DNA from: Candidatus Lokiarchaeum ossiferum
GTDB lineage: Archaea > Asgardarchaeota > Lokiarchaeia > Sigyniarchaeales > Promethearchaeaceae
Direction: 5' to 3'
Assembly: GCA_025839675.1 (NCBI GenBank)
Contig: CP104013.1
Coordinates: 6,003,314 to 6,035,313 of the forward strand
DNA: 32,000 nt
Part shown: one piece after another, positions 90 through 31,741 of the stretch
How positions within the stretch are numbered: the first letter of the stretch is position 1
How the letters are laid out: each line of letters starts with the position of its first letter
Translations under genes and position numbers: made by a program
The notes under the pieces: model-generated
Seen by the model: only the letters and a program-made list of their open reading frames with translations
Databases searched by the model: none
Told to the model about the DNA's origin: nothing

Positions 90-1028
90 TCAAATTCCAC
101 CATTAATAATATCCCGATATATTTTCCCTAATGTGCCTAATTGAGGACGAAGATCAAAACAATAATTCCTTTCCAGCATTAATTTATTGATTACCTCTGG
201 TTGATCTGTTTTAAAAGTGATTATTCCATCTGCTTCCAAATTTAGATTTGATATTAAATTAGTTTGATTTTTCAAGAAAGATTTCATTTCATCTATAGAT
301 TGAGATTTGTGGGAGAATTCCAATGAAAAATTTTGATGTTTCATATTACCTGCAATGGAATTAAGTTTTCCATTCAAAACAACTTGCCCACTTTTAAAAA
401 TCGCAATATCAGATGCTAATTGCTCTGCCTCATAGGTTTCATGGGTTGTAAAGATTATTATTGAATCCTTCTTATATCGTTTCTTAATTAAATGAATTAT
501 ATCATCCCGTCCTATCGGATCTAAATTTTGAAATGGTTCATCTAAGATAATTAAATCTGGATTTCCTATAAAAGCACGAGCCAAAGCCAATCTTTGTTTC
601 ATTCCATGAGAATATGTCCGTGTTTTTTTTTCCCAGAATGAATCAGGAATATTAACCCATTTAAGCAACTCTATTGATTTTTCCTTAATAATACTTTTCT
701 TATTAAAACCTTTTAATCTAAAGAACAGTCTTAAATTTTCCTCTCCTGATAAATTTGGATAAAAATCACCGTTCTCAGGAAGAAAACCAATCCTATGGAA
801 AATTTTAGAACCTTTAGTAAATGGATCCAAGATTTCATTTTGATAATAAACTGATCCACAATTTTTTTTTATTAAACCTAAAATCATCAATAAAGTTGTT
901 GACTTCCCTGCACCATTTGGACCCAAAAATGCATGAATTCCTGGATTAATTTCAATTGAGAGATCTTGAACTGCAAGAAATGACCCATATTTTTTTGTTA
1001 AGGAATTTAATTTTAATGTCTTATCCAT
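90..1028 (-). CDS. ABC transporter ATP-binding protein
   Basis: 312-aa ORF with Walker A GPNGAGKST, signature-like YSHGMKQRLALARA, Walker B LIILDEP and H-loop TTHE. There is an extra ~90-aa C-terminal domain. Confidence 0.9.
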   Translation of the reverse strand: MDKTLKLNSLTKKYGSFLAVQDLSIEINPGIHAFLGPNGAGKSTTLLMILGLIKKNCGSVYYQNEILDPFTKGSKIFHRIGFLPENGDFYPNLSGEENLRLFFRLKGFNKKSIIKEKSIELLKWVNIPDSFWEKKTRTYSHGMKQRLALARAFIGNPDLIILDEPFQNLDPIGRDDIIHLIKKRYKKDSIIIFTTHETYEAEQLASDIAIFKSGQVVLNGKLNSIAGNMKHQNFSLEFSHKSQSIDEMKSFLKNQTNLISNLNLEADGIITFKTDQPEVINKLMLERNYCFDLRPQLGTLGKIYRDIINGGI

Positions 1029-1369
1029 GATTTTGAACTCGAAAGTTTAAAATTGGGAATAATATTAAATGTTTTTTATTTCAGTCTAAGAAGAGATAAA
1101 ACACTGAAATTTACTCTTTTGGAATAATGGAATAAAAAATAAATCTTTTTTCCAGTAATGTCTTCAAAAATTATATGGAATCATTTTTAACCACCGATAT
1201 TGTATATAAATACGCCTACTACGGCAAAAGGTAAAATGAAGCATTATATTATGTTCTTATAATCTATCTTTTTTTTTCTACTTCTTGGAAATAATTTAAC
1301 AGCAATTTTTAATGCAATAAAGTAAAAAAGCTCAAATTTTGAACAAAACTCGGAAAATGCAATTACAAA

Positions 1370-1681
1370 TCATTGAAATCCCTTAAATTGCTGCTCATCG
1401 CTGTCAAGATCGCTTTCCAGATCGGGATTATTAATTTTGTCAAATTCAAGACTATTCCACATATAGTATTTCTTTAAAAGCGAAATAAACGTTTCTCCCC
1501 ACATACTTACCTTTTGAATCGCACGTAACAATCGGGCTTCCGAAAATTCGGAAAAGTAGAGACGAGTCCATCCAAAGGTAATATATGGCCGTGTTTCAAA
1601 AGGGAGCTCTGGATAAATGGAACCCAAGAAAGATATTTTATGCAGTTCCAGCAAAAATAGTTGGGATTGTTCAGTTGTCAC
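1370..1681 (-). CDS. hypothetical protein with acidic C-terminal tail
   Basis: 103-aa ORF with a GTG start and the tail DLESDLDSDEQQ. No recognisable motif. The upstream region is noncoding-looking and carries repeat element copy A. Confidence 0.4.
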   Translation of the reverse strand: MTTEQSQLFLLELHKISFLGSIYPELPFETRPYITFGWTRLYFSEFSEARLLRAIQKVSMWGETFISLLKKYYMWNSLEFDKINNPDLESDLDSDEQQFKGFQ

Positions 1682-7764: not shown

Positions 7765-10700
7765 TTACCCTGTATAAACTGCAACATTGTTAATATAACT
7801 TGTATCTTCATTTTCAAATAGATAAATTCGTGTGTCTATAGGATTATTCGCATCATAAAAGTAAATTTCACTTTTCATAGAATATGATGTTGCATAAGAT
7901 ATTTTTGGGCGAATATGGATACTATATCCGCTCAGATGTAGGTCTATTGTCGCACCTCCATACACTTCAGTTGTTTTCTTTATTGTATGAGAATATGTAG
8001 AAGCTGCCCCTGCAGGATACTTCCATTCAAAATTATCAATAGTAGGCTGAGATATAATGGGATTTGGTACTTCGGAAAATGGATACTCCAATGAATACGA
8101 TAATTCCGTTAATCCAACATATCCCGGCGATTCTGACTCAATAAAGGTAGTTTCTTGTATGTAATGTAGTTGATTTGCGCTTGCAAATTTAAAACCTGTT
8201 GCTTTTACTGATCCTTTATAATTTTTAATAAGGATTATATCCCCAGTAGCTTGATTTGCAGTCCATGACAATTCAGTTTCATAGTTATCTTCACTAGTGG
8301 TTCCGATATCAAGTACAACTTCAAGATAGTCTAATTCACTTCCCCATTTCTTTCCGATAGCAACTTCTAAAGATATTTTTGTGGAAATTGTTTCTGTGAT
8401 AGTCAATTTTTGCCAACTTTCTTCCCCGGAAGGTGCATAAATTCGAGAAATAAATAAAGGGATTTCCTGATCTTCTAGAATTTCAACTTCCACGTTTTCA
8501 TCACATGTATCAATTTTAACATTATCAATGTAAACAGAATACGCTGAGCTATGAGAAATACTTTTAGTTGTAATTCGTATTCCTGAAGGAATATCTGTGT
8601 TATCCTTGATATTCATTGGTCCAGCTATTAAAACAGAGTTCAAATATATTTTACATCTTTGAATATTAGTATCATGCCAATAAAATAGGAAATCGATTTG
8701 ATACATTTTTCCAACATCAATATCTGCACGATGATCCCAATTGGGTATTGCTAAACCTGATATATCCACATCAAGTCTATTTTCTCCCAAACGAATCTTC
8801 TTTTGCTCATGTCCATCCTCATCTAGAATTTCAATATAGGCATATTGATTATTCACATTTGTTTCTAAGCCAACTTCTACAGAAAATAATACTGGAGCGT
8901 TTTCAGGGATATTTTTTGATTTTTCAATTTCCACATTTCCTCCAAACAGACCATAACTTTCATCAATCAATCTTACTACTTTTCCAGGTCGGTTAGTCCA
9001 ACTTGGTGCATTAATAATAGTTGCTGCACAATCCGTATCTTCCTCAATTGTCCAACTGTTTAACGAATCTCCGTTCACATCTTTATCAAAGTGATCTCCA
9101 AAAGGATCCATCGAATCTAATGGATTAGTAAGGTAAGTTAAAATTTCTTCTCCATCTGAAAATTCATCCCCATCCGAATCCGCTTCGGTCGGGTCGGTGC
9201 CTAAGTCCACTTCTTCCCCATCTTCCAACCTATCCCCATCCGAATCATCATTCTTAGGATCGGTTTTATAACCAAAAGAAGAATAGATTTCATCCGCATC
9301 CGAAATACCATCGTCATCCCAATCAAGAGGGTTTACACCGCCAATATTCAACCCTGTGTCTTCTTCAAAACGATCCAATAATCCATCTAAATCACTATCT
9401 GTCTGTTCTACGGCGAAGTTGGCGATTTTCCAGGTTCGCCCTCCATCATAAATCCAAGCTTTAATTTCCGTAATCATGGCTAAGGATCGGATCCATCCAT
9501 ATCGGACCAGTTCACCATCCCAAGTGGTCTTCATAAATTTATTTATTGGGGAATTAGGGATTATTTCGATTTCGAGATGGTGGTAAACGTTGGGAGTATT
9601 ACTATCATAGATATCCAGTCCAGTTTTATCTAAGTATTTGGTTCCATCGAACATGCGAATCTTTCCTAAAGCGGGTTCAATTTTGAGTAAAACATACTTT
9701 CCATCAGCAAAAGCAACATGGATAATTTTGACATTATCATCACTAAATTGGAGATCACACGAGAGGTATAACATTCGATTTGGATTTTCATAGGCATTAT
9801 AGGTAAAGGAAGCTCCTGATGTTGATGGAGATTGGAGGACTGCAACATTATTAATGCCAGAACCATAATTTTCCAAACTAATACTTCCTACATCATTAAT
9901 TGGATCAAACACTGTAGGGTTATAGTATACTAACGGATTATAGCCAGCAGTGTTCGCTTCAAAATAGTCTGAATATCCATCTCCATCCGTATCGGGATTT
10001 AAAGGATCTGTGCCGATCATATCTTCATCTTGATCTACTAATCCATCTTGATCATTATCAAATTCAAGATTGCCAACATACCATATGTTTGATTTATACA
10101 TACCTAACAACATGCTGGTAAATATTTCAGTATCTGGTGAATTGATATAAAGTGATAATCCGCCGAGTAAATGGCCATTCCAATAGGTTCGCCATAATTT
10201 TTGACCGGAATTTTGTTGGACGATTTTAACAACTAAATGGTGATCCGTATTTGCCTGGAACCCACCAAATTGAGTATTAACAGAATTAACATCATGATAA
10301 ATGGTGCCATCGTGAAGTCGGATTTTGCTATATTGAGGTTCAAATTTGATTAAAAGTGCCTTATTATTTCCAAAATAAAATCGCAAGAAAGTGGTTTGTT
10401 TTACTGTAAACTTAATGTCACATTCAAATTGGAGCACATTTCGGGACATCTCCAGATTTCGTTCTTTATATTCAAAATAACTCCAAGTAGTGCCCGTTGA
10501 GGTTAATTTGGATATATCACTTTCGAGATAACTCACTGATCCAGTGCCACTAAGAGATTTGAAATCTACCTGATTATCAGCAACATAGATTGTACTCTGA
10601 GCTCGCATGGTTCGCATAGCAAAATCTCGAATATCACTAGAACTCTCTAATGTGACGGGTGTATTCAAAGCGCCGTCATCGAGATACATCATCAATTCTT

Positions 10701-11184
10701 TTGTTGTAGTGCTTGATTGAGTAACCCTCAACTGAAAAGTGTACCATTGATTGGTGTTATACTTTAGATTCTGTGCTTGGTTTTCCATAACTAAATCATC
10801 GTATGTATAAGTAGAAATCCAATCACTCTCAAAACGGATGATGAAATAATCCCCATCTTCTAGAAAAACGTATAATTGTTTTCTCAAACCATCTCCAAAT
10901 TTTAAACTACATTGGAAATAAAAGTTTTCTTCGCCAAGGCCAGTTCCAGTATAATAAAACCAGGAAACATCAGAAGTTCCAGCAGTTAAAGCATAAATCT
11001 CCGTTATATCTCCCTCATTAGCGACATTTACGATGGTTGCAGCATCGTTCGTACTATAGGTGACTTCCCAGTCTCCGTCAGCATCTCCTACTTCTGCACT
11101 GACCAAAGACAAGTCATTTTGGGGTAGGATCGGGATCATTAAGAATCCCAATGCGAGTATCAAGACAATTTTTTTATTTTTCAT
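7765..11184 (-). CDS. secreted giant protein: 4 LamG/ConA-like jelly-roll domains with thrombospondin-type-3-like Ca-binding linkers and a C-terminal beta-rich domain
   Basis: 1139 aa with signal peptide MKNKKIVLILALGFLMIPILP. Four ~170-190-aa domains share a layout (..F.CD(I/L)KF.., ..(I/L)(I/L)(K/R)(F/I)E(P/S).., a final strand such as IYVADNQVDF or WYVGNLEFD). Asp-rich linkers DNDQDGLVDQDEDMIGTDPLNPDTDGDGYSD (~9934..10062) and DSDLDGL...DDDGISDADE...DSDGDRLEDGEE...DSDGDEFSDGEE (~9100..9410). No C-terminal anchor. Confidence 0.9.
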   Translation of the reverse strand: MKNKKIVLILALGFLMIPILPQNDLSLVSAEVGDADGDWEVTYSTNDAATIVNVANEGDITEIYALTAGTSDVSWFYYTGTGLGEENFYFQCSLKFGDGLRKQLYVFLEDGDYFIIRFESDWISTYTYDDLVMENQAQNLKYNTNQWYTFQLRVTQSSTTTKELMMYLDDGALNTPVTLESSSDIRDFAMRTMRAQSTIYVADNQVDFKSLSGTGSVSYLESDISKLTSTGTTWSYFEYKERNLEMSRNVLQFECDIKFTVKQTTFLRFYFGNNKALLIKFEPQYSKIRLHDGTIYHDVNSVNTQFGGFQANTDHHLVVKIVQQNSGQKLWRTYWNGHLLGGLSLYINSPDTEIFTSMLLGMYKSNIWYVGNLEFDNDQDGLVDQDEDMIGTDPLNPDTDGDGYSDYFEANTAGYNPLVYYNPTVFDPINDVGSISLENYGSGINNVAVLQSPSTSGASFTYNAYENPNRMLYLSCDLQFSDDNVKIIHVAFADGKYVLLKIEPALGKIRMFDGTKYLDKTGLDIYDSNTPNVYHHLEIEIIPNSPINKFMKTTWDGELVRYGWIRSLAMITEIKAWIYDGGRTWKIANFAVEQTDSDLDGLLDRFEEDTGLNIGGVNPLDWDDDGISDADEIYSSFGYKTDPKNDDSDGDRLEDGEEVDLGTDPTEADSDGDEFSDGEEILTYLTNPLDSMDPFGDHFDKDVNGDSLNSWTIEEDTDCAATIINAPSWTNRPGKVVRLIDESYGLFGGNVEIEKSKNIPENAPVLFSVEVGLETNVNNQYAYIEILDEDGHEQKKIRLGENRLDVDISGLAIPNWDHRADIDVGKMYQIDFLFYWHDTNIQRCKIYLNSVLIAGPMNIKDNTDIPSGIRITTKSISHSSAYSVYIDNVKIDTCDENVEVEILEDQEIPLFISRIYAPSGEESWQKLTITETISTKISLEVAIGKKWGSELDYLEVVLDIGTTSEDNYETELSWTANQATGDIILIKNYKGSVKATGFKFASANQLHYIQETTFIESESPGYVGLTELSYSLEYPFSEVPNPIISQPTIDNFEWKYPAGAASTYSHTIKKTTEVYGGATIDLHLSGYSIHIRPKISYATSYSMKSEIYFYDANNPIDTRIYLFENEDTSYINNVAVYTG

Positions 11185-11583: not shown

Positions 11584-14500
11584 ATGAAATCAAGTAAAAA
11601 AAATACCTATTTAGGCATTCTGACGCTTATACTCCTTGGTTTTTCTGGTGCATTTTCACTACTATCACCAAGGGATCAAAACAATTTGAGAGCACCCTCT
11701 GTTGCTGACAATTCTCCCCTTTTATATGTTAATTTTGAAAATACTCTCACCAGTTCCACGGGGGAGACTGGAATCACAAATGGAAATTGGGAATATAACA
11801 CAACCGATGCAATTTTGGATTCTTATTCTGTCTATTTACCTGGAGAAAACAAAAATCACATCAAATGGGATTATGGAAGTGCCTTATCTGAGGGGACTAT
11901 GGAATGCTATTTCCATCCGACCTCCTTAGGGGATATTCCTAGCGCATTTTACATCATGCAGGCAGGAGAATATTTTGACTCCTATATTGGGCTCTATCAT
12001 CGACAATCTGGAGAATTATTCGCTCAATTTGTTGAAGATGGACCAATAATTCATACTTTGAAATCTAGCATTAATATTACTGCGGATCAAACCTATCACT
12101 TTGCTTTAACTTGGGGCGCACGGGGGGTTGAATTATGGATGAACGGTTTTCTCGTAGCTTCAGATCCAGATCTCACCAATGGATTGGATAGTGCAACTCG
12201 ATACTATGGTATTGGGAATGTACCTATGGGTTCTTCCACAAATTCAGGAATTGGGTTCTGGGATGAGTTTCAAGTAAGTGATTTTCAGAAAGATTCCTTT
12301 GTTTCAACAACCGATGTGTTAGGTGATAAACTTCCTGCACCCACTTTGAATTCCATTCCATCTCCCGATTCTGATGGAAACGTTTCCCTATCTTGGAATA
12401 GTGTTTCTGGAGCAGATCTGTATCACGTTTTTCGGTCAAATCAATCTATCTCTGAAATTAATGGGACTCAAACTTTAATCAATACTACCGATCAATTGAT
12501 TTGCGAGGATATCGAGTTGGAAGAGAAAACCTATTATTATGCCGTTGTGGCTCAAAATACCAGTGGGTTTTCGAATACATCTAATTGTGAATCCGTAGTT
12601 ATTACTTATCCTCCAGATTTAGTTGATGCCAATACTGTATTATATTGTGGGTTTGAAAATACCTTAGCTAGCTATTCTGAACATACTGCCATTACAAATG
12701 GGGGGTGGAGCTATGAAGAAATTAGTCCTCTGGTGGAAACATCGTCAGTTTCATTACTAGGAGAAAATAAGAATCATGTCAAATGGGATTATGGAAGTGC
12801 TCTTAGCGAAGGAACTATTGAATGTTTTTTCCGTTCGACAAATCTTGAGTCCTCTACCGGCGCAAAATATATTTTACAAGGTGGAGATTTGTTTGATGGG
12901 TCGTTTGGAGTATATTACTATAAAAATGGAATTCTACGCGCTCAACATGTAGACGGTGGAACAATTTATACTTTAGAATCTTCGGTAAATATCACATCAA
13001 ATCAAACCTATCATATCGCCTATTCCTGGGGATCCCGGGGCATTGAGCTATGGTTGAATAATGAGATCGTAGCCTCAAATAATACAATTCAAATGGGATT
13101 AGAAAGCTTTACTCGTTATTATGGGGTAGGAAATACTCCTATGGGTTCTTCTACCTTTTCTGGTTTAGGTTTTTGGGATGAATTTCGATTAAGTGACATT
13201 CAACGGGATTCTTTTACTCATCTTGATGGGATAATTGATGAAAAACCTGGGACACCCTTATTGAACCCAATTGAATCTCCTGATTCCGATGGAAATATTT
13301 CTTTATCTTGGAATTCTGTCATCGGAGCAGATACTTATTTAGTGTACCGATCGACCCAACCAATTTCTGAAATTAATGGGACTCAAACTTTAATCAATAC
13401 TACCGAGGAGTTGACTTGTGAAGATCTCAATTTGGGTGAAAACACTTATTATTACGTCGTTGTGGCTCAGAACGCAAGTGGATTTTCCAACATGTCCAAT
13501 TGCGAGTCTGTAATAATATCGTTATCTTCCGGTTTTGAGGATGAACATACTTTGTTGTTTTGCGAATTTGAGAATTCTCTCGCAAGTTCAACGGGTGAAA
13601 GTGGAATCACTAATGGAAATTGGGACTACAATACAATTAATGCGTTAGTAGATTCCACTTCGCTTTATTTACCAGGTGAAATCAGAAATCATATTAAATG
13701 GGATTACGGAAGTGCCTTATCTGAAGGAACAATGGAATGTTATTTCCGTCCAACCACACTTGGAGATATTCCAAGTGCATTTCACATCATGCAAGCGGGA
13801 GAGTATTATGATTCCTATATTGGGCTTTATCATCGTCAATCCGGTGAACTTTTTGCCCAATTTATTGAAGGGGGATCGATTATACACAGTTTGAAATCCA
13901 GTAAGAATATTTCTGCGAATCAAACATATCATTTTGCGTTAACATGGGGTTCACGGGGGGCGGAATTATGGTTGAATGGTCAAATTACTGCATCAGATCC
14001 GACGATTACGAATGGATTATATAGTACAACTCGATACTACGGTATTGGAAATGTACCTATGGGTTCTAATACAAATTCAGGTATTGGATTTTGGGATAAC
14101 TTCCGGCTCAGTGACATTCAACGGGATTCCTTTACTTATATATCGGATGTTATTGGTGAAAAACCATCTAATCCTATGTTGAATTCTATTCCATCTCCTG
14201 ATTCCGATGGAAATATTTCTCTATCTTGGAATAGTGTTTCTGGAGCCGATCAATACCTAGTGTATCGATCTCCTCAATATATTTCTGAAATAAATGGGAC
14301 TCAAACTTTAATCGATATGACCAATCAGTTGACTTGTGAAGACCTCAATTTAGATGAGGGACTTTATTATTATGCTATTGTTGCGCAAAATGCAAGTGGT
14401 GTATCTAATTCATCAAATTGTGAGTTGGTTGTGGTTGTTCTTCCTCCAGATTTAGTGGATGAACATACGTTATTATATTGTGGTTTTGAAAATACTTTAA

Positions 14501-15921
14501 TGAGTTATTCTGGTCATTCCGCAATAACTAATGGAGGGTGGAGCTATGAAGAAAACAATCCGCTGGTAGAATTATCTTCAGTTTCATTACCTGGAGAAAA
14601 CAGAAATCACATAAAATGGGATTATGGAAGTGCCTTATCTGAGGGAACAATGGAATGCTATTTCCGTCCAACCACACTTGGAGATATTCCAAGTGCATTT
14701 TATATTATGCAAGCTGGGGAGTATTATGATTCCTATATTGGGCTTTACCATCGTCAATCCGGTGATTTATTTGCCCAATTTGTTGAAGGGGGATCGATTA
14801 TACACAGTTTGAAATCCAGTGAGAATATTTCTGCGAATCAAACATATCATTTTGCGTTAACATGGGGATCACGGGGGGTGGAATTATGGTTGAATGGTCA
14901 AATCGTCGCTTCCGATAATACACTAAATGATGGGCTTTATAGCACAACCAGATACTATGGTATAGGAAATCTCCCAATGGGTTCTAATACAAATTCGGGT
15001 ATTGGATTTTGGGATAACTTCCGGCTTAGTGACATTCAACGGGATTCTTTTGGGGATATTGCTAAAATTGTCGGTGAAAAACCTTCTTCCCCTACTTTAA
15101 ACTCTGTAGAATCACCCGATACTGATGGAAACATCACACTTTCTTGGAATTCTCTTAAAGAAGTTGATTCTTATAATGTTTATTCATATTCTTCATGGTT
15201 TGATTCAGTAAACGAATCAATCGACATGAAGGTTTCAACTAATTTAACTGAATATACTGAGAACAATCTTCTAAATGGAACATATTATTATGCGGTTTCT
15301 GCCTGGAATTCTAGTGGTAGATCATTGCTCTCCAATTGTATCAAAATTGAAATTGCAATTCCATATATTCCACCCGTCGAACCTGAGTGGACTAATGGAA
15401 CTTGGCAAGATGTTGGTATAGGGGTGAGTACATTCATATGTACTGATGAAAATTTAAATATATGGATGGTCATCAAAATCGGGAGTGATATTACAACTGA
15501 AATTCGCTTAACTTACTATCAGACCAATCCTCTTGTTGGTACGATACCTGAAAACGTCTCATTGGAACATTTTTATCAAGTGGAAGTGCTAAATACCTCT
15601 TCTATTAGTTATTTATCCGCAAGTTTTTATTTTGGGGATCCAAAATACTCAGAAGAAGATTTATCCACAATGTGCATGTATCAATTTATGGATTCGGAAT
15701 GGAAAGAACCTACTCTACTTCAATCAAAGTATGAGAACAATATTTTTATGACAGATATATCTGCAAATGCCTATTTTGCCTTAGGAAATGATCTAAATCC
15801 TGAACTCCCAACTACTTCATCACCATTTAAAATCCCTGGCTATGATGGGTTCTATTTTGCAGCAAGTGTGTTTATTTCATTTTATATACTCCTAAGGAGA
15901 AGAGGTATAATAAAAAAGTAA
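11584..15921 (+). CDS. giant surface protein: 4 x (LamG_3-like lectin domain + FN3-like domain), C-terminal domain, C-terminal TM anchor
   Basis: 1445 aa with N-terminal signal/anchor YLGILTLILLGFSGAFSLL. Four ~306-aa modules. The LamG-like part ends in G(I/L)GFWD(E/N)F(R/Q)(L/V)SD(I/F)Q(R/K)DSF. The FN3-like part reads SPDSDGN(I/V)SLSWNSV.GAD.Y.V(Y/F)RS...YYY.VVAQN.SG. The tail is IPGYDGFYFAASVFISFYILLRRRGIIKK. Confidence 0.95.
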   Translation: MKSSKKNTYLGILTLILLGFSGAFSLLSPRDQNNLRAPSVADNSPLLYVNFENTLTSSTGETGITNGNWEYNTTDAILDSYSVYLPGENKNHIKWDYGSALSEGTMECYFHPTSLGDIPSAFYIMQAGEYFDSYIGLYHRQSGELFAQFVEDGPIIHTLKSSINITADQTYHFALTWGARGVELWMNGFLVASDPDLTNGLDSATRYYGIGNVPMGSSTNSGIGFWDEFQVSDFQKDSFVSTTDVLGDKLPAPTLNSIPSPDSDGNVSLSWNSVSGADLYHVFRSNQSISEINGTQTLINTTDQLICEDIELEEKTYYYAVVAQNTSGFSNTSNCESVVITYPPDLVDANTVLYCGFENTLASYSEHTAITNGGWSYEEISPLVETSSVSLLGENKNHVKWDYGSALSEGTIECFFRSTNLESSTGAKYILQGGDLFDGSFGVYYYKNGILRAQHVDGGTIYTLESSVNITSNQTYHIAYSWGSRGIELWLNNEIVASNNTIQMGLESFTRYYGVGNTPMGSSTFSGLGFWDEFRLSDIQRDSFTHLDGIIDEKPGTPLLNPIESPDSDGNISLSWNSVIGADTYLVYRSTQPISEINGTQTLINTTEELTCEDLNLGENTYYYVVVAQNASGFSNMSNCESVIISLSSGFEDEHTLLFCEFENSLASSTGESGITNGNWDYNTINALVDSTSLYLPGEIRNHIKWDYGSALSEGTMECYFRPTTLGDIPSAFHIMQAGEYYDSYIGLYHRQSGELFAQFIEGGSIIHSLKSSKNISANQTYHFALTWGSRGAELWLNGQITASDPTITNGLYSTTRYYGIGNVPMGSNTNSGIGFWDNFRLSDIQRDSFTYISDVIGEKPSNPMLNSIPSPDSDGNISLSWNSVSGADQYLVYRSPQYISEINGTQTLIDMTNQLTCEDLNLDEGLYYYAIVAQNASGVSNSSNCELVVVVLPPDLVDEHTLLYCGFENTLMSYSGHSAITNGGWSYEENNPLVELSSVSLPGENRNHIKWDYGSALSEGTMECYFRPTTLGDIPSAFYIMQAGEYYDSYIGLYHRQSGDLFAQFVEGGSIIHSLKSSENISANQTYHFALTWGSRGVELWLNGQIVASDNTLNDGLYSTTRYYGIGNLPMGSNTNSGIGFWDNFRLSDIQRDSFGDIAKIVGEKPSSPTLNSVESPDTDGNITLSWNSLKEVDSYNVYSYSSWFDSVNESIDMKVSTNLTEYTENNLLNGTYYYAVSAWNSSGRSLLSNCIKIEIAIPYIPPVEPEWTNGTWQDVGIGVSTFICTDENLNIWMVIKIGSDITTEIRLTYYQTNPLVGTIPENVSLEHFYQVEVLNTSSISYLSASFYFGDPKYSEEDLSTMCMYQFMDSEWKEPTLLQSKYENNIFMTDISANAYFALGNDLNPELPTTSSPFKIPGYDGFYFAASVFISFYILLRRRGIIKK
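11719..15360 (+). repeat. 4 tandem ~918-bp (306-codon) coding modules
   Basis: Module starts (L(L/V)Y/F-C/V-x-FEN) are at 11719, 12637, 13552 and 14470. Modules 3 and 4 are ~94% identical over ~300 nt (13683.. vs 14601..) by hand alignment. A 40-nt identical stretch (tctgaaattaatgggactcaaactttaatcaatactaccga) is shared by modules 1 and 2. Confidence 0.9.
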
Positions 15922-26122: not shown

Positions 26123-27505
26123 TTAAGTTACTTGCTCATAAAATGCATCGTAAATGTCAAGAAATGTTGAAATGTGCTCTTCATTGCCATGAAGAATGCC
26201 AATCAGATTCTCTTCTTGACCAGCAAGTAATCTTTGTAAATTTTCTATATTTATAATATCGGATTGGACCGTTGCAAGTGGATATGTTCCTGTTTTTTGA
26301 TACATTCTTCCCCTTGCCAAGCGTAGGTAAAATCCTTCATATCCTTTGAGATAAAATTGAATCACAAAGTCTTCTGATTCCATAAATAGCCCGATATCTT
26401 CGGAAGAATTACATAGTGTGATAAAGTGTTTAATTTTTTGACTTATATCTGAGGGTAATTGCTGAAGAGGGCTATCTGGATCTTGTTGGCTTATCGTTTT
26501 TTGCTCTGAATTCCGAATTATTTGTGTTTGATGGGCCAATTCTTGAATTTTTGAAAGGGGGGTGGGTGCTGGTCGTTTTTTAGGGATTTCGTTTTCGATT
26601 GAAGGGTCATCTTGTAAAGGATCTGGAAGTAAAGAAATATCTATTTTTTCTTCATGGGGGCCATCTTTTTCATTAACAGTACCATTCTTTTCTAATTTTT
26701 CCTTCCTCGTTGCATCGGAAGAATTAATATCTTCAATTTTTAATAATTCAAATTGTTCATTCCACTTGGGAATTTTTTTCTTATATTCTCTAAATCCCGC
26801 TTTTCCACACGATGGGCAAATGGATAGATTTCGTTTTTCCGCCTTTACTAAGCATTGAGGGCAATAAATTTGTTTACACTTTTGATTGGAACAAATTAAA
26901 AGGATATTTGGCTCCTTATGGCAAGAAAAACATTTCTTTCCTATTGATCGGGAAAGAAACATAATATTATTGTCATAATTTGTCAAGAGCATGTCTGTAC
27001 GCTTATTTAACCACTTCTTTTCATTACAAAATGGACATCTCTTAAGATATTTTTTTGGCTTCTTAGGTTCTGTAGCGCAATCCAAACAAATTAATGCTTT
27101 ACATTTTTCACACTTGATATGAAATCCATGATGATGTCCGCTAAATATAAATTCTTCATCGGATCCCAAGAGTTTTCCACAAGTATGGCAATGTAAATTG
27201 ACTTCTTTCTCACAGTTTTCGCACACATAGTGATCTACTACATATGAGCGCTTTTCTGTGGATTGGTAGGCCGGACCATACGTTTGGACAAATGAACTTA
27301 AGCTTTTCCCATTGTATCTTTTTGTATGATAGCATGATTTGCAAAATTCATTTCCACAACTTTCACAAGTAAGTTTTGATTTAGGATCAACTTTATCTAT
27401 AGTGATGCCAACAAATTCAGCGATGAATTTTCGTGTAAATCGATTGAAATCTTTAATATCGGCTTTTGTTAAATAAGTACCGCAAATTAGACAAGTTTTT
27501 CCCAT
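26123..27505 (-). CDS. multi-zinc-ribbon / RING-IBR-like cysteine-rich protein with unassigned C-terminal domain
   Basis: 460 aa. The first ~240 aa contain 11 CxxC pairs (CLIC, CESC, CKSC, CENC, CHTC, CEKC, CLDC, CPFC, CFSC, CPQC, CPSC) plus CSNQKC and a His cluster (HHHGFH). Then a low-complexity P/E/Q linker and a ~110-aa globular C-terminal domain. Confidence 0.8.
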   Translation of the reverse strand: MGKTCLICGTYLTKADIKDFNRFTRKFIAEFVGITIDKVDPKSKLTCESCGNEFCKSCYHTKRYNGKSLSSFVQTYGPAYQSTEKRSYVVDHYVCENCEKEVNLHCHTCGKLLGSDEEFIFSGHHHGFHIKCEKCKALICLDCATEPKKPKKYLKRCPFCNEKKWLNKRTDMLLTNYDNNIMFLSRSIGKKCFSCHKEPNILLICSNQKCKQIYCPQCLVKAEKRNLSICPSCGKAGFREYKKKIPKWNEQFELLKIEDINSSDATRKEKLEKNGTVNEKDGPHEEKIDISLLPDPLQDDPSIENEIPKKRPAPTPLSKIQELAHQTQIIRNSEQKTISQQDPDSPLQQLPSDISQKIKHFITLCNSSEDIGLFMESEDFVIQFYLKGYEGFYLRLARGRMYQKTGTYPLATVQSDIINIENLQRLLAGQEENLIGILHGNEEHISTFLDIYDAFYEQVT

Positions 27506-27722: not shown

Positions 27723-28373
27723 TTATTTATCGTAAAGTTGATAGAGCGTAGTGCGTCTTACTAATTCTGCAAAAAGGGGGTAAATATTATATTTTTTATC
27801 CCACAAGGCAATAGTTTCGTATACTATTGGATTCCAAATATTCAATTTATGATCTGGCGGATAAATGAGGTTGTTTTCATCCAGTATTTGATAAATTTCT
27901 TCTTTTCGCATAGTATTGGGGAGATCTTGTTTGTTGGCCATTATTAAAAGTGGAATTTTACTGATAAGGTCTTCTCCACATATATTTTTCAATTCCTTAA
28001 GAGAATTAATGTTGCGATCTCGGTTACTTCGTTGAGAATCAAATACTAAGATAATACCATCCGTTCCATAAAATATCTTCTTTCGGAGTGGAAAAAAGCG
28101 ATCTTGGCCTGCTACTGTATAGATGTGGTAAAAAAGATTCTTTTCGCTTTTGGATTGAAATACCCCTCTGTCAAAATAAAGAGTTGACCCATTTTCCATG
28201 GCTATTTTTTTGAAATCATTTATGGGTGTTAAATTTGATTCAGAATCCTCTTCTTTTGCCATTTTATGTAGGGTATCAACCGCAGTGGTTTTCCCAGACC
28301 CCGCGCATCCCCACAAGAGTAACTTTATGTAGACTTTTCCATCCTCATTTACATTAACCAAAGGTTTATTCAC
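27723..28373 (-). CDS. MglA-like small GTPase
   Basis: 216 aa with a GTG start. P-loop LLLWGCAGSGKTT. The G3 motif is the MglA-type YTVAGQDRF (Thr in place of the usual Asp; M. xanthus MglA has YTVPGQ). TDGIILVFDSQ and G4 ANKQDLPN align by eye along the whole of MglA. Confidence 0.9.
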   Translation of the reverse strand: MNKPLVNVNEDGKVYIKLLLWGCAGSGKTTAVDTLHKMAKEEDSESNLTPINDFKKIAMENGSTLYFDRGVFQSKSEKNLFYHIYTVAGQDRFFPLRKKIFYGTDGIILVFDSQRSNRDRNINSLKELKNICGEDLISKIPLLIMANKQDLPNTMRKEEIYQILDENNLIYPPDHKLNIWNPIVYETIALWDKKYNIYPLFAELVRRTTLYQLYDK

Positions 28374-28598: not shown

Positions 28599-29111
28599 CT
28601 ACCACATTATATCAAGAACGATATCGGCTAAAGTACTTTTAAATTTACGCAAAGATTCCATTTTCATAATTGAAGTTTCATAGGATAGAATTTTTCGATG
28701 GCGAATCTGAGACAATTGAAAAAAATCTCTTGCTTTTTTAAGATTTTGTTGAGATTCTAAGAGATCCATTTTATGGAAACAGAATATAAAAGGAACATTT
28801 CGAGTTAAAGGATTATCTAAAACTTTTTCAAATTCTCGTTTTGCTTCTTCAAATCGTGGCGAATCTAAAACGTCTAACACAAAAATATTAATCTTTGCTC
28901 GTTTGATGCCTTTTATCCAAACATCACGAAAGGAAACTTGTCCAGGAGCATCCCATATTTGGAAAACAATATTTTTTGTAATCAATTTAGTAATATTGAA
29001 GGATAAAGTAGGTTTTGTACCTTGAATCAATTTATCTTCTCTAATTGAAGAAATTAGTGCTGTCTTTCCTGCTTGATCAATTCCGAAAACAAAAATTTTA
29101 TGTTGCTCCAT
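28599..29111 (-). CDS. Arf/Arl/Sar-like small GTPase
   Basis: 170 aa. KIFVFGIDQAGKTALI corresponds to Arf1 RILMVGLDAAGKTTIL. PTLSFNITKLITKNIVFQIWDAPGQVSFRDVW corresponds to [32 protein letters not shown]. The G4 motif is degenerate (HKMD). LSQIRHRK corresponds to LHSLRHRN. Confidence 0.9.
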   Translation of the reverse strand: MEQHKIFVFGIDQAGKTALISSIREDKLIQGTKPTLSFNITKLITKNIVFQIWDAPGQVSFRDVWIKGIKRAKINIFVLDVLDSPRFEEAKREFEKVLDNPLTRNVPFIFCFHKMDLLESQQNLKKARDFFQLSQIRHRKILSYETSIMKMESLRKFKSTLADIVLDIMW

Positions 29112-29221: not shown

Positions 29222-30328
29222 TTATCTCATCCGTTTCTTATATATAATGAGAGTAATTGCCACAAAAGTAACAGAAACCCCTATAGATATTAAAAAGAAT
29301 GGCAAGTTTACCTTCTTTACTTCTCGCCACAATTTCAAGTTTGTATTATAATACCATTGATCTCCAAACGGCTGGTTCATATCTTCTGGATTTCCTCCTC
29401 CAAATAGAAATATTTTATTAGAACTTTCTATGTAAACCATTTGATGAACCATCCTCATTTTCGGTTTGTTAAGGCGCTTCAATTCTGACCATGATTCAGT
29501 TCTACAATTGAATATCCAAGTAATCTCTTCTAAAAATGGATAACTCCCACTTCCACTAAAAAATACAATTTTATCATGCTTTTGATCAAAACACGCACCC
29601 ATCCAATATCGCTTGCTGGGACCTTTTTCATCAATAGGTATTTCCTGCCAGCTATTATTATTGGGGTTTAATATCCAAATGTCACAATAATCACTACTAT
29701 ATGGTCTTCCTCCTACTAAATACACCCGATCTAAATTAACACTGTACATTAAAGATGCACCATATCTACCCGAAGGTTTTGCGCCCGTTTGATTTAGTTG
29801 AGTCCATGAATCCGTAGAACAATTAAAACTCCATAAGTCTCCGAGCTTGGTATCAATTTGAAATCCCCCAAATAGCAATATCTGAAATCTTTTTTCATCA
29901 AATGTAAACCCTGCATCAGTACGGCTTGGTGGTGAACTTGATAGATTTAATTTTCTCCATAGATTGCTTTCCACAGAAAATTCCCACATTGCTGTTCCTG
30001 AATACAAAATCACTCGATTATTTGTAGAATCATATGCCATTCCATGATGGGAAGTAGGTCCGGGGTTAATATCTCCAGAAATTTCTTGCCACTTGTTTGT
30101 TTTACAATCAAATATCCATGTATCATCCAATACACCGTTACTAGATTGGTTTTCTCTTCCTCCAAATAGAAAGATTTGATCTGACTGCGAAAGATAGACC
30201 ATTGAATGAGCAGTTCTTGGACAAGGCAATGAATTCTGTTCTGCATTTGCAAAATTGATCTGAAAGTGCGGGAATGTTGATATTAAAATGAGTAAACTAA
30301 TTTCAATGCATATTTTATTCGACTTCAT
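29222..30328 (-). CDS. six-bladed Kelch-repeat beta-propeller, signal peptide plus C-terminal TM anchor
   Basis: 368 aa with signal peptide MKSNKICIEISLLILISTFPHFQINFANA. Six repeats of P.....H.MVY.....IFLFGG......DDTW.F.....W. C-terminal helix FFLISIGVSVTFVAITLIIY followed by KKRMR. Confidence 0.9.
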   Translation of the reverse strand: MKSNKICIEISLLILISTFPHFQINFANAEQNSLPCPRTAHSMVYLSQSDQIFLFGGRENQSSNGVLDDTWIFDCKTNKWQEISGDINPGPTSHHGMAYDSTNNRVILYSGTAMWEFSVESNLWRKLNLSSSPPSRTDAGFTFDEKRFQILLFGGFQIDTKLGDLWSFNCSTDSWTQLNQTGAKPSGRYGASLMYSVNLDRVYLVGGRPYSSDYCDIWILNPNNNSWQEIPIDEKGPSKRYWMGACFDQKHDKIVFFSGSGSYPFLEEITWIFNCRTESWSELKRLNKPKMRMVHQMVYIESSNKIFLFGGGNPEDMNQPFGDQWYYNTNLKLWREVKKVNLPFFLISIGVSVTFVAITLIIYKKRMR

Positions 30329-30616
30329 AATCTATAAAATCATATCATGTTTATAAGAAATATTTGCTTTCATCTTCGTTTCATTCCAAAAAAGATGAAC
30401 AATTTTTATATTTGGAAAAAAAACAAATTATTCTTATTTTTATAATCAAAAATGGATGAGTTAATGAACCTTTTCTTAAGGAAAGATGATTTTATTTAGA
30501 ATTGAATCGTTCTCGGATGTCTCTTGTTATTCATTTGTCATGAACTTGTACTTTAATTTCATTAAGGATTTTTAACAGAATAGAAGAAAAAAGAATGACA
30601 TATATTTGAATCTAGT

Positions 30617-31741
30617 TTATTCTTGTCGTCTCCATTCTTCGCCACATTCACCGCAGATAAACTTTTTTCCATAAATCAATGGGTAATCCATTATAATATT
30701 GGTTCGATCCTCTACCTCGCGCATTAAGTTCGGTTTAATGTTACCGCATTTTGGACATTGATTTCTTCCTTCCCCAGTTTGAATTTTAATAGCATTTTTC
30801 TCGGCTTCTTCTTTGGCTTTACGATCGGCTTCTTCTTTAGCTTTGCGATCGGCTTCTTCTTTAGCTTTACGATCGGCTTCTTCTTTGGCTTTACGATCGG
30901 CTTCTTCTTTGGCTTTACGATCGGCTTCTTCTTTAGCTTTACGATCGGCTTCTTCTTTAGCTTTACGATCGGCTTCTTCTTTGGCTTTACGATCGGCTTC
31001 TTCTTTAGCTTTACGATCTGCTTCTTCTTTAGCTTTACGATCGGCTTCTTCTTTGGCTTTACGATCGGCTTCTTCTTTGGCTTTACGATCGGCTTCTTCT
31101 TTGGCTTTACGATCGGCTTCTTCTTTAGCTTTACGATCGGCTTCTTCTTTAGCTTTACGATCGGCTTCTTCTTTGGCTTTACGATCGGCTTCTTCTTTAG
31201 CTTTACGATCTGCTTCTTCTTTAGCTTTACGATCGGCTTCTTCTTTGGCTTTACGATCGGCTTCTTCTTTGGCTTTACGATCGGCTTCTTCTTTAGCTTT
31301 ACGATCGGCTTCTTCTTTGGCTTTACGATCGGCTTCTTCTTTAGCTTTACGATCGGCTTCTTCTTTGGCTTTACGATCGGCTTCTTCTTTAGCTTTACGA
31401 TCGGCTTCTTCTTTGGCTTTACGATCCGCTTCTTCAAAATGGGGTTGACAATCGGAAATCATCTTTTCTGCGTATATTATTCCATCATTCCATTTCTGCC
31501 TAAGACAAATCTGTTTAGATCTTCTGAATAAATCTGCAGCCAATTTCCATTTTTGCTGACTATAGGCCATTTTTCCCTTTTCAACAATCATAAAATTAAT
31601 TTTTCCCATTAACTCGGCGAATTCTTTGTTCGCATTTTCGATATTAGTCCTAAATTGGTGTAATTCAGGGAGTTCCATTTCTGGCGAATAATTTAATTGT
31701 TTTAAATAAAGGTTGAAAATTTCTTTGATCGGACTTTCCAT
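30617..31741 (-). CDS. protein with N-terminal helical domain, (EEADRKAK)x26 charged repeat and C-terminal zinc ribbon
   Basis: 374 aa made of a 102-aa N-terminal domain, 208 aa of perfect octad repeat, and a 64-aa C-terminus with CPKCGN-x29-CGECG. This frame is chosen because it alone connects non-repetitive ORF sequence on both sides of the repeat. Confidence 0.85.
   Translation of the reverse strand: MESPIKEIFNLYLKQLNYSPEMELPELHQFRTNIENANKEFAELMGKINFMIVEKGKMAYSQQKWKLAADLFRRSKQICLRQKWNDGIIYAEKMISDCQPHFEEADRKAKEEADRKAKEEADRKAKEEADRKAKEEADRKAKEEADRKAKEEADRKAKEEADRKAKEEADRKAKEEADRKAKEEADRKAKEEADRKAKEEADRKAKEEADRKAKEEADRKAKEEADRKAKEEADRKAKEEADRKAKEEADRKAKEEADRKAKEEADRKAKEEADRKAKEEADRKAKEEADRKAKEEADRKAKEEADRKAKEEAEKNAIKIQTGEGRNQCPKCGNIKPNLMREVEDRTNIIMDYPLIYGKKFICGECGEEWRRQE
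30812..31435 (-). repeat. 24-bp tandem repeat x 26 (624 bp), coding
   Basis: The unit on the + strand is tttRgctttacgatcggcttcttc. The variants are R = g or a, one acg>gcg, two ggc>tgc and one ggc>cgc. A 192-bp (8-unit) higher-order duplication is marked by gatctg at 31015 and 31207. Confidence 0.98.

Follow-up and report, generated by a model that had tools for sequence, protein, structure and literature searches.

A predicted single alpha-helix of 26 perfect EEADRKAK octads precedes a Loki-type Zn domain in an Asgard archaeal protein

A 32,000-nucleotide stretch of the Candidatus Lokiarchaeum ossiferum genome (contig CP104013.1, positions 6,003,314 to 6,035,313, referred to here as the window) encodes a three-part cytoplasmic protein of a Promethearchaeota/Lokiarchaeia-type Asgard archaeon. 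An N-terminal helical module is joined in this protein to a C-terminal zinc-ribbon-like domain, the Zn domain of Lokiarchaeota gelsolins, by a linker in which the octad EEADRKAK is repeated 26 times without a single amino acid change. The linker is predicted to be a single alpha-helix (SAH) of the glutamate-, arginine- and lysine-rich (ER/K) type, and the protein is probably a modular tether consisting of the N-terminal module, the ER/K helix and a docking Zn domain. SAH linkers as such are already known, having been predicted in all three domains of life (PMC5812594), as are Zn domains behind variable linkers in "unrelated multi-domain proteins" (PMC9433394). What is new is this architecture, the family to which the N-terminal module belongs, the length and perfection of the octad array, and the recurrent amplification of 24-bp ER/K units in front of the Zn domain.

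The array was found to be the only one in the window. Tandem Repeats Finder placed it at 30801-31435, with a period of 24, 26.5 copies, 96% matches, 0% indels and a score of 1151. The initial annotation of this DNA had read 624 bp as 26 EEADRKAK octads in a frame continuous with the flanking open reading frame (ORF), with all nucleotide variants silent and at third codon positions, and a unit-by-unit dissection of the 26 units agreed with it on every count. Just three sites in the unit vary, each of them a third codon position and each silently: nucleotide 9 (C23/A2/G1, Ala GCC/GCA/GCG), nucleotide 15 (T25/C1, Arg CGT/CGC) and nucleotide 21 (C13/T13, Ala GCC/GCT). At the peptide level the block is 100% identical over the 26 octads. 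Four ORFs span the array, as more than one frame of the 24-bp unit is free of stop codons. The EEADRKAK frame alone runs into conserved domains on both sides, and a hidden Markov model of the N-terminal module and a profile of the Zn domain both match the single ORF 30617..31741. This gene is on the minus strand, a detail absent from the initial annotation. An 8-unit higher-order duplication had also been proposed. It stands for units 9-16 and 17-24, which differ by 1 nt, but not for the array as a whole, since units 1-8 do not fit the scheme. The GCA-marked units are numbers 10 and 18, 192 bp apart, and self-identity of the array at a 192-nt shift is 97.9%, compared with 95.8-97.5% at other shifts.

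The composition of the octad is that of an ER/K helix. Two Glu, one Asp, one Arg, two Lys and two Ala make it 75% charged and 25% Ala, with a net charge of 0 and a pI of 6.95. None of the 208 residues of the repeat is Val, Ile, Leu, Met, Phe, Tyr or Trp, and Pro and Gly are likewise absent. There are eight opposite-charge i+3/i+4 pairs per octad, two further i+3 pairs included, and all six charged residues take part in three continuous i/i+4 ladders (E1-R5-E1', E2-K6-E2' and D4-K8-D4'). The alanines form a fourth stripe with a period of 4.0 residues, which precesses by 40 degrees per 4 residues and completes one turn per 36 residues (54 A). Owing to this 4.0-residue period, the stripe is incompatible with the coiled-coil periodicities of 3.5 or 3.67. 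A canonical coiled coil was considered and rejected: the repeat has a period of 8, Ala is its only apolar residue, and it has no bulky hydrophobic residues to fill a/d core positions. The K:R ratio of the octad is 2:1, as in AEEEKRK, the most helical and thermostable of the de novo SAH designs (PMC5347031). When AlphaFold2 (AF2) was run on the single sequence, it returned helices at residues 84-200 and 212-321 with a predicted local distance difference test score (pLDDT) of ~80-87. From the continuous alternating-charge i/i+4 ladders and the one Ala stripe, we predict that the segment is a monomeric ER/K SAH. An SAH had been proposed at the outset together with an AlphaFold run on the protein; the hallmarks of such a helix (composition, three ladders and an AF2 helix over the repeat, with one midpoint break) are present, while helicity and the monomeric state remain predictions.

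Several points weigh against the picture of a tether built on a long single helix. AF2 breaks the helix at residues 201-211, the midpoint of 84-321, and folds the chain back on itself, with pLDDT below 50 at the break and a predicted template modelling score (pTM) of 0.24. On a simplified Waggawagga-like score, our own re-implementation with matrices that differ from the published ones, the repeat reaches 0.49 of the EEEEKKK maximum; the same score gives 0.83 for AEEEKKK, 0.06 for EAAAK and 0.00 for GCN4, and the default SAH cut-off of 0.25 of the published Waggawagga is not comparable with these simplified matrices. Octads rich in Asp and Ala are also less studied than E/K/R heptads. At the level of the whole protein, the figure of 26 copies comes from one assembly, as short-read contigs break at the array, and the exact 374-residue product has no record in a collection of 15 billion proteins.

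The AF2 break and the Ala stripe are also what would be expected if the repeat were an antiparallel two-helix hairpin, or if it paired with a second molecule in an Alacoil-like or charge-zipper fashion. The break falls at the exact midpoint, an Ala every 4 residues makes a small-residue stripe, and the alternating charges could pair between helices, so that the linker would have half the reach or form a dimeric stalk. We consider this quite unlikely. Because all octads are identical, none of them encodes a turn, and we read the midpoint break, with its low pLDDT and pTM, as a fold-back habit of AF2. The repeat offers no bulky hydrophobic or aromatic side chain for packing, and a stripe of 4.0 residues is far from 3.5 or 3.67. 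Furthermore, the Ala-containing designs AEEEKKK and AEEEKRK are monomeric SAHs (PMC5347031).

About equally improbable is a repeat that is a disordered, well-mixed polyampholyte and serves as an entropic, flexible linker. Charged low-complexity repeats are often disordered. In addition, Pro-rich and clearly non-helical linkers (PEPVQV, PEPTPAPA and EAAAPKAK) precede the same Zn domain in other proteins, which indicates that the Zn-domain family tolerates disordered linkers (PMC9433394 and this analysis). Against disorder, the repeat has ideal i/i+4 salt-bridge spacing and an AF2 helix with pLDDT above 80. Glu, Ala, Lys and Arg are the strongest helix formers, and no Pro or Gly interrupts them in 208 residues. 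The SAH remains the reading we prefer, with one correction to its mechanics: the initial annotation had pictured a rigid 31-nm rod, but the contour length of 31-36 nm is about twice the persistence length of an SAH, ~15 nm (PMC5347031), so the helix would be a semi-flexible tether.

The identity of the C-terminal domain could be settled by comparison with a known protein. Within the last 64 residues of the protein, the stretch 318-372 alone matches residues 280-334 of PDB entry 7WHG_G, the Lokiarchaeota gelsolin 2DGel, with E=5.1e-18, and a profile of the Zn-domain family matches the same chain with E=3.2e-25. The zinc ribbon recognized at the outset can therefore be named: it is the Loki-specific Zn domain of Loki2DGel (PMC9433394). 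Its cysteine spacing, first given as C-x2-C-x29-C-x2-C, is corrected to C-x2-C-x30-C-x2-C. In the family alignment, C329, C332, C363 and C366 are invariant and the D-Y-P-x-I-Y-G-K-K loop is conserved. This agrees with the definition of Akil et al. 2022 (PMC9433394), in which the "Zn" domain is a (CxxC)2 motif with a conserved extended loop bearing a Tyr. More general zinc-ribbon models fit less well. The family profile matches the TFIIS/Rpb9-type zinc ribbon of PDB 1QYP weakly (E=1.6e-3), and all Pfam zinc-ribbon matches of the target are below cut-off (Zn_Ribbon_YjdM 7.8e-4, Zn_ribbon_TFIIS 0.35).

The Zn domain has been found only in Loki and exclusively at C-termini, in 2DGels, "unrelated multi-domain proteins" and free proteins of ~64 residues, behind linkers that are non-homologous and variable (PMC9433394). 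For example, the linker of Loki2DGel is 69 residues long, charged and predicted to be helical, and that of MKD1-2DGel consists of nine PEPVQV repeats (PMC9433394). The same placement is seen here, with the domain following a variable linker and ending 8 residues short of the stop codon, at the very C-terminus. Our searches yielded 27 protein members of the family, most of them free-standing with 57-68 residues, and 323 metagenome loci. At locus L003, the Zn domain is encoded by both members of a convergent gene pair (811-1020, plus strand, and 1100-1411, minus strand), one a free Zn protein of 69 residues and the other a longer protein whose C-terminal Zn domain follows a P/Q/E/K-rich linker cut off by the contig end. 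The domain is presumably a docking module for a cellular partner. In the published work it did not co-sediment with F-actin, lacked density in the 7WHG crystal, and has its zinc as a model only (PMC9433394).

Linkers built from repeats, ER/K octads included, recur ahead of this Zn domain; the protein described here is the extreme case. At least 7 of the 84 Zn-domain ORFs that the metagenome loci yielded have three or more tandem copies in their linker. In L026, the Zn domain is directly preceded by 8 or more near-identical units of 24 bp that encode AEEEARKK, and the contig ends inside the array. The linker of L016 consists of PEPTPAPA x6, and those of L079 and L089 have 16-residue repeats. 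A direct copy-number difference is seen between L059 (EAAAPKAK x4) and L061 (x3), two gelsolins that are otherwise near-identical. Loki 2DGel linkers can thus be built of 8- or 16-residue tandem repeats, namely PEPTPAPA, EAAAPKAK and EVAAPKAKEVVELKHK (L016, L059/L061 and L079/L089, respectively). With ~216 residues, the linker of the present protein is roughly three times the usual length.

Two unannotated homologues, P0031 (208 residues) and P0037 (194 residues, from Promethearchaeota metagenome-assembled genomes, MAGs), have the same layout of module, charged linker and Zn domain, which fits the original proposal of a spacer between two end domains. They are 40-42% identical to the target over the aligned ends. 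Their linkers are ~80 residues long, E/K-rich and non-repetitive, with that of P0037 partly Pro-rich. The P0031 linker holds KAKEEADQ and AEAEKNAE, which look like the seeds of the octad that became amplified and of the degenerate unit 27 that follows the array. Another relative, P0046, continues from its N-terminal module into AEEEAKKK-type octads. Since the homologous linkers are ~80 residues and non-repetitive, a fixed length is unlikely to be required, and the idea of a molecular ruler, put forward with the rigid rod, is overstated in view of this variation.

The same comparison bears on whether the charged helix might itself do the work, by presenting a surface that binds a filament, nucleic acid or divalent cations, rather than simply keeping two domains apart. 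SAHs can bind partners (PMC4571873 and PMC10335832), for example the INCENP SAH (microtubules) and the CAF-1 KER helix (DNA); Akil et al. proposed that charged tails might aid calcium regulation (PMC9433394); and the restriction of changes to silent ones suggests that the exact peptide matters. However, the repeat is net neutral with a pI of 6.95, whereas DNA- or microtubule-binding SAHs are basic, and the linker sequence is not conserved in the homologues. The silent-only variation is equally well explained by the youth of the array together with constraints on frame and helix. We therefore rate this possibility as highly unlikely.

At the other end of the helix, an exhaustive HMMER search with residues 43-100 recovered 22 relatives at E<=1e-3 (best E=1.2e-13), mostly from Asgard archaea. 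Neither a word-index search nor peptide-pattern scans of genome and metagenome contigs detected any relatives of this domain. The family alignment defines a module of ~55 residues with invariant N49, A68, F72, S75, C79, W84, G87 and A91 and the pattern N..V..a....W..A..lF..S.eiC...W.dG..yA..MI..C. With a 14-sequence alignment, AF2 modelled residues 1-102 with a pLDDT of 90.8 (97-99 across residues 41-100) as helices 4-15, 25-61, 65-82 and 85-101, supporting the helical N-terminal domain of the initial annotation. The last of these helices abuts the repeat in the model. The first 42 residues form an extension that is missing from P0031 and P0037 in the alignment.

The fold of the module resembles tetratricopeptide repeats (TPRs) without matching them significantly. 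Pfam TPR_2 was detected below threshold in 5 of 14 relatives (best 3.6e-4) and with E=1.4e-16 in P0042, a bacterial relative from Phycisphaerae with 10 tandem copies of the module. The target module itself matched no Pfam family, its profile gave no sequence match in the PDB, and the lowest E from Foldseek against the PDB was 0.11, TPR and MIT structures following at 0.3-1.2. With neither a Pfam TPR match of the target at the gathering threshold nor a significant fold match, we call the module TPR-like and leave it unassigned to the TPR family. The module occurs singly, in tandem, or fused to other domains. It lies downstream of a WD40 propeller in P0032 and of a cold-shock domain in P0041, and is combined with TIR and leucine-rich repeat (LRR) domains in P0043 (Lokiarchaeota) and with LRR in P0044. 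An E/K/R-rich helix often follows directly after it in the relatives. From these sequence contexts it behaves as a mobile, previously undescribed repeat or adaptor module, and it presumably binds a partner.

How the array arose can be read in part from its DNA. The units are 96-98% identical, so the array is either young or being homogenised. The variants correspond to ~4 independent substitutions, all silent. As 14 of the 72 possible single-base changes in a unit are synonymous, this outcome has p ~0.0014, or 0.012 if only transitions are considered, and the evidence for constraint on the peptide, or at least on frame and helix pattern, is modest but real. Within the array, nearly all Ala codons are GCC or GCT and nearly all Arg codons CGT. 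These are minority codons in the remaining window genes, where GCA accounts for 46% of Ala and CGT for 12% of Arg codons, and their use fits the amplification of a single founder unit. The GC content is 44% in the array and 34% in the window. A plausible history is that slippage or unequal recombination multiplied one 24-bp octad of an E/K-rich ancestral linker of ~80 residues into 26 copies. This expansion would have been recent, with one sub-step duplicating a block of ~8 units, and only silent changes would have accumulated since.

Whether 26 is a meaningful number is a separate question. Two contigs from short-read runs (SRR22273277 and SRR32148622) start 19 nt into the last perfect unit and from there agree exactly with the 3' flank and the rest of the window that they cover. 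Independent runs thus reproduce the array boundary. Short-read Logan contigs (SRR22273277, SRR32148622/3) also carry the neighbouring Kelch and Arf proteins. The count could be an assembly estimate or a fast-varying length polymorphism in which no particular length is functional. This would be compatible with a tether, and is a possibility to be taken seriously even if we do not favor it. It would account for the point at which the short-read contigs stop, for the lack of a record of the exact product, for the different octad counts of the gelsolin loci L059 and L061, and for the L026 contig that likewise ends within its array. On the other hand, the GCA, GCG and CGC markers and the irregular C/T series are internal landmarks not expected of a collapsed or invented assembly, and the frame is intact.

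Taken together, these features suggest how the tether might work. The Zn domain would dock to a structure or complex shared with the Loki gelsolins, and the TPR-like module would bind a second partner. Between them, the ER/K helix would continue the last helix of the N-terminal module (residues 84-321, ~36 nm) and act as a semi-flexible spacer, setting the reach of the module from the docked Zn domain and lowering the effective concentration between the two ends. Its length would be free to evolve through repeat expansion. A bolder version, unlikely in our estimation, would make the Zn domain a shared hook that attaches gelsolin, TPR-like and coiled-coil cargos to one structure, the linker an evolvable length dial, quickly reset as 24-bp repeats expand and contract, and the ~33-nm helix the first SAH lever or ruler in Asgard cell architecture. 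If true, a mechanical element typical of eukaryotes would be pushed back before eukaryogenesis.

If the helix prediction holds, the repeat would be among the longest and most regular natural SAHs, and it would come from a close archaeal relative of eukaryotes. The Zn tail is also carried by the actin-severing gelsolins of Lokiarchaeota, and a family that varies in both cargo and linker offers a handle on the docking partner and lets the importance of linker length be tested. Should the prediction fail, the array would be a plain low-complexity linker expansion in a lineage-specific protein. Whatever its function, so regular an octad provides a natural ER/K spacer that is ready for use and can be tuned in length, and the array is a clean case of tandem DNA amplification tripling a protein linker while selection keeps the peptide constant.

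Table 1. Coordinates of the array-bearing gene, its parts and signals, and other genes in the 32,000-nt window
Feature	Position in window	Strand	Description
Complete gene	30617..31741	minus	374 aa, 43.8 kDa, pI 7.5; N-terminal helical domain, 26 octads and C-terminal Zn domain
TATA-like box TTTATAAA	31764..31771	minus	-30 to -23 relative to the ATG; candidate archaeal promoter of this gene, read from sequence
N-terminal extension	31616..31741	minus	aa 1-42; helices 4-15 and 25 onward; AF2 pLDDT 74-92
Conserved three-helix TPR-like module	31436..31615	minus	aa 43-102; from HMMER relatives, alignment and AF2
Repeat linker	30812-31435	minus	26 contiguous 24-bp units, each EEADRKAK; aa 103-310 = 208 aa, ~31 nm contour; predicted ER/K-type single alpha-helix
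Degenerate 27th unit EEAEKNAI	30788-30811	minus	aa 311-318; likely remnant of ancestral linker
Loki-type C-terminal Zn domain	30620..30787	minus	aa 319-374; C329-x2-C332-x30-C363-x2-C366 zinc ribbon, DYPxIYGKK loop
Oligo-T run CTTTTTTC on coding strand	30586..30595 (approximate)	minus	~25 nt past stop codon; possible archaeal terminator
Kelch beta-propeller	29222-30328	minus	Hydrophobic N-terminal signal-like segment; C-terminal transmembrane helix and basic tail (…FFLISIGVSVTFVAITLIIYKKRMR)
Arf-family GTPases, adjacent, divergent	27723-28373 and 28599-29111	minus	Pfam Arf E=2.9e-18 and 2.4e-29
460-aa protein	26123-27505	minus	>10 CxxC pairs in N-terminal half (zinc-ribbon or treble-clef-like); downstream of the two Arf-like genes, co-directional
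Two very large proteins, divergent orientation	7765-11184 and 11584-15921	minus and plus, respectively	1139 and 1445 aa; bacterial TSP3, laminin-G/ConA-like and GH85_C-like domains

The gene content of the window is typical of Asgard archaea and includes Arf-family GTPases, a Kelch propeller whose C-terminal tail is hydrophobic, and proteins of the LRR, TSP3 and laminin-G kinds. All relatives of the target domains that carry a name are assigned to Promethearchaeota, Lokiarchaeota or Hodarchaeota. Searches of the window for tRNAs and Rfam families found none. The target is one of five co-directional genes between 26.1 and 31.7 kb, separated by gaps of 288 (target to Kelch), 110, 225 and 217 bp. 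An operon with the Kelch and Arf GTPase genes was considered and found to be unsupported: the gaps of 110-288 bp, the gene's own TATA-like box and oligo-T run, and the lack of conserved synteny at homologue loci all speak against it. The position of the box suggests a leaderless or short-leader mRNA. The GTPase/Kelch neighbourhood to which the initial annotation had drawn attention is not kept at the homologues' loci, where P0031 is downstream of ETF genes and P0046 upstream of a guanylate kinase gene. P0037 lies 46 bp upstream of a gene for a ZIP-family metal transporter on the same strand, a pairing seen in several MAGs (L006 6589-8055, also L007-L010) and not in the window. An Arf-like gene is found within a few kb in L026 and L006, and not in L004 or L012; we do not count this as linkage, because small GTPases are very abundant in these genomes. 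The neighbour in L026 (1094-2212, minus strand), beside the gene for the AEEEARKK array and Zn domain, encodes a 372-residue protein whose C-terminal part is 37% identical to the 170-residue Arf-like GTPase of the window, and could reflect chance or a weak recurring association.

As for the neighbours themselves, the 216-residue Arf-like GTPase has an insertion in its G domain, and the 460-residue CxxC protein matched no Pfam or NCBIfam family. The Kelch protein is probably a surface-exposed, membrane-anchored propeller. A scan of GTDB genomes for it returned only unrelated Planctomycetota Kelch proteins with 24-27% identity. The two very large proteins are probably secreted or adhesive.

Several database matches to the repeat were rejected. 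Cornifin/SPRR proteins are Pro/Gln/Cys-rich repeats of mammalian cornified-envelope proteins. The corresponding model (PF02389) scored 43.5 bits against a gathering threshold of 34.8, yet the repeat has no P, Q or C, and we take the match to be an artefact of periodicity and low complexity. Matches to the NCBIfam MSCRAMM (Clf/Sdr) models are far below cut-offs, cover only the repeat and reflect composition. The same is true of the TolA models NF007065 and TIGR02794, which scored 46.1 against 213 and 41.1 against 59.45 bits and covered the repeat only, although these compositional matches have E values of 3e-12 and 1e-10. The relative P0046 carries the JGI label "membrane protein involved in colicin uptake".

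As an analogue, TolA is nonetheless instructive. Its domain II spans the bacterial periplasm as a long helical spacer rich in Ala, Lys, Glu and Asp. The predicted linker helix would work in a similar way, being long, charged and Ala-containing and connecting an anchor to a distal binding domain. Unlike TolA, the target is archaeal and cytoplasmic, and has neither a transmembrane anchor nor a TolA domain III. Among proteins related by descent, P0031 and P0037 are homologous to it in both N-terminal module and Zn domain, and differ in lacking the 42-residue extension, in their shorter and non-repetitive linkers and in their neighbourhoods. With Loki2DGel and MKD1-2DGel (PMC9433394) the target shares a homologous C-terminal Zn domain behind a low-complexity linker of variable length and sequence, charged and predicted to be helical in the former and a tandem repeat in the latter. 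The cargo, however, is a TPR-like three-helix module and not gelsolin domains, and the ~216-residue linker of perfect ER/K repeat compares with 69-79 residues in the 2DGels. Finally, the linker resembles the SAHs of myosin-10, myosin-6 and caldesmon and the AEEEKRK/AEEEKKK designs (PMC5347031, PMC4183817, PMC5812594) in being E/K/R-rich without a hydrophobic seam, in its dense i/i+3 and i/i+4 opposite-charge pairs, and in its place between two functional domains as a predicted long monomeric spacer or spring. It differs from them in its perfect 8-residue period, where theirs are irregular or 7-residue, in its Asp and 25% Ala, and in its archaeal host and recent 24-bp amplification; at 208-238 residues, it is at or above their usual range of 40-200.

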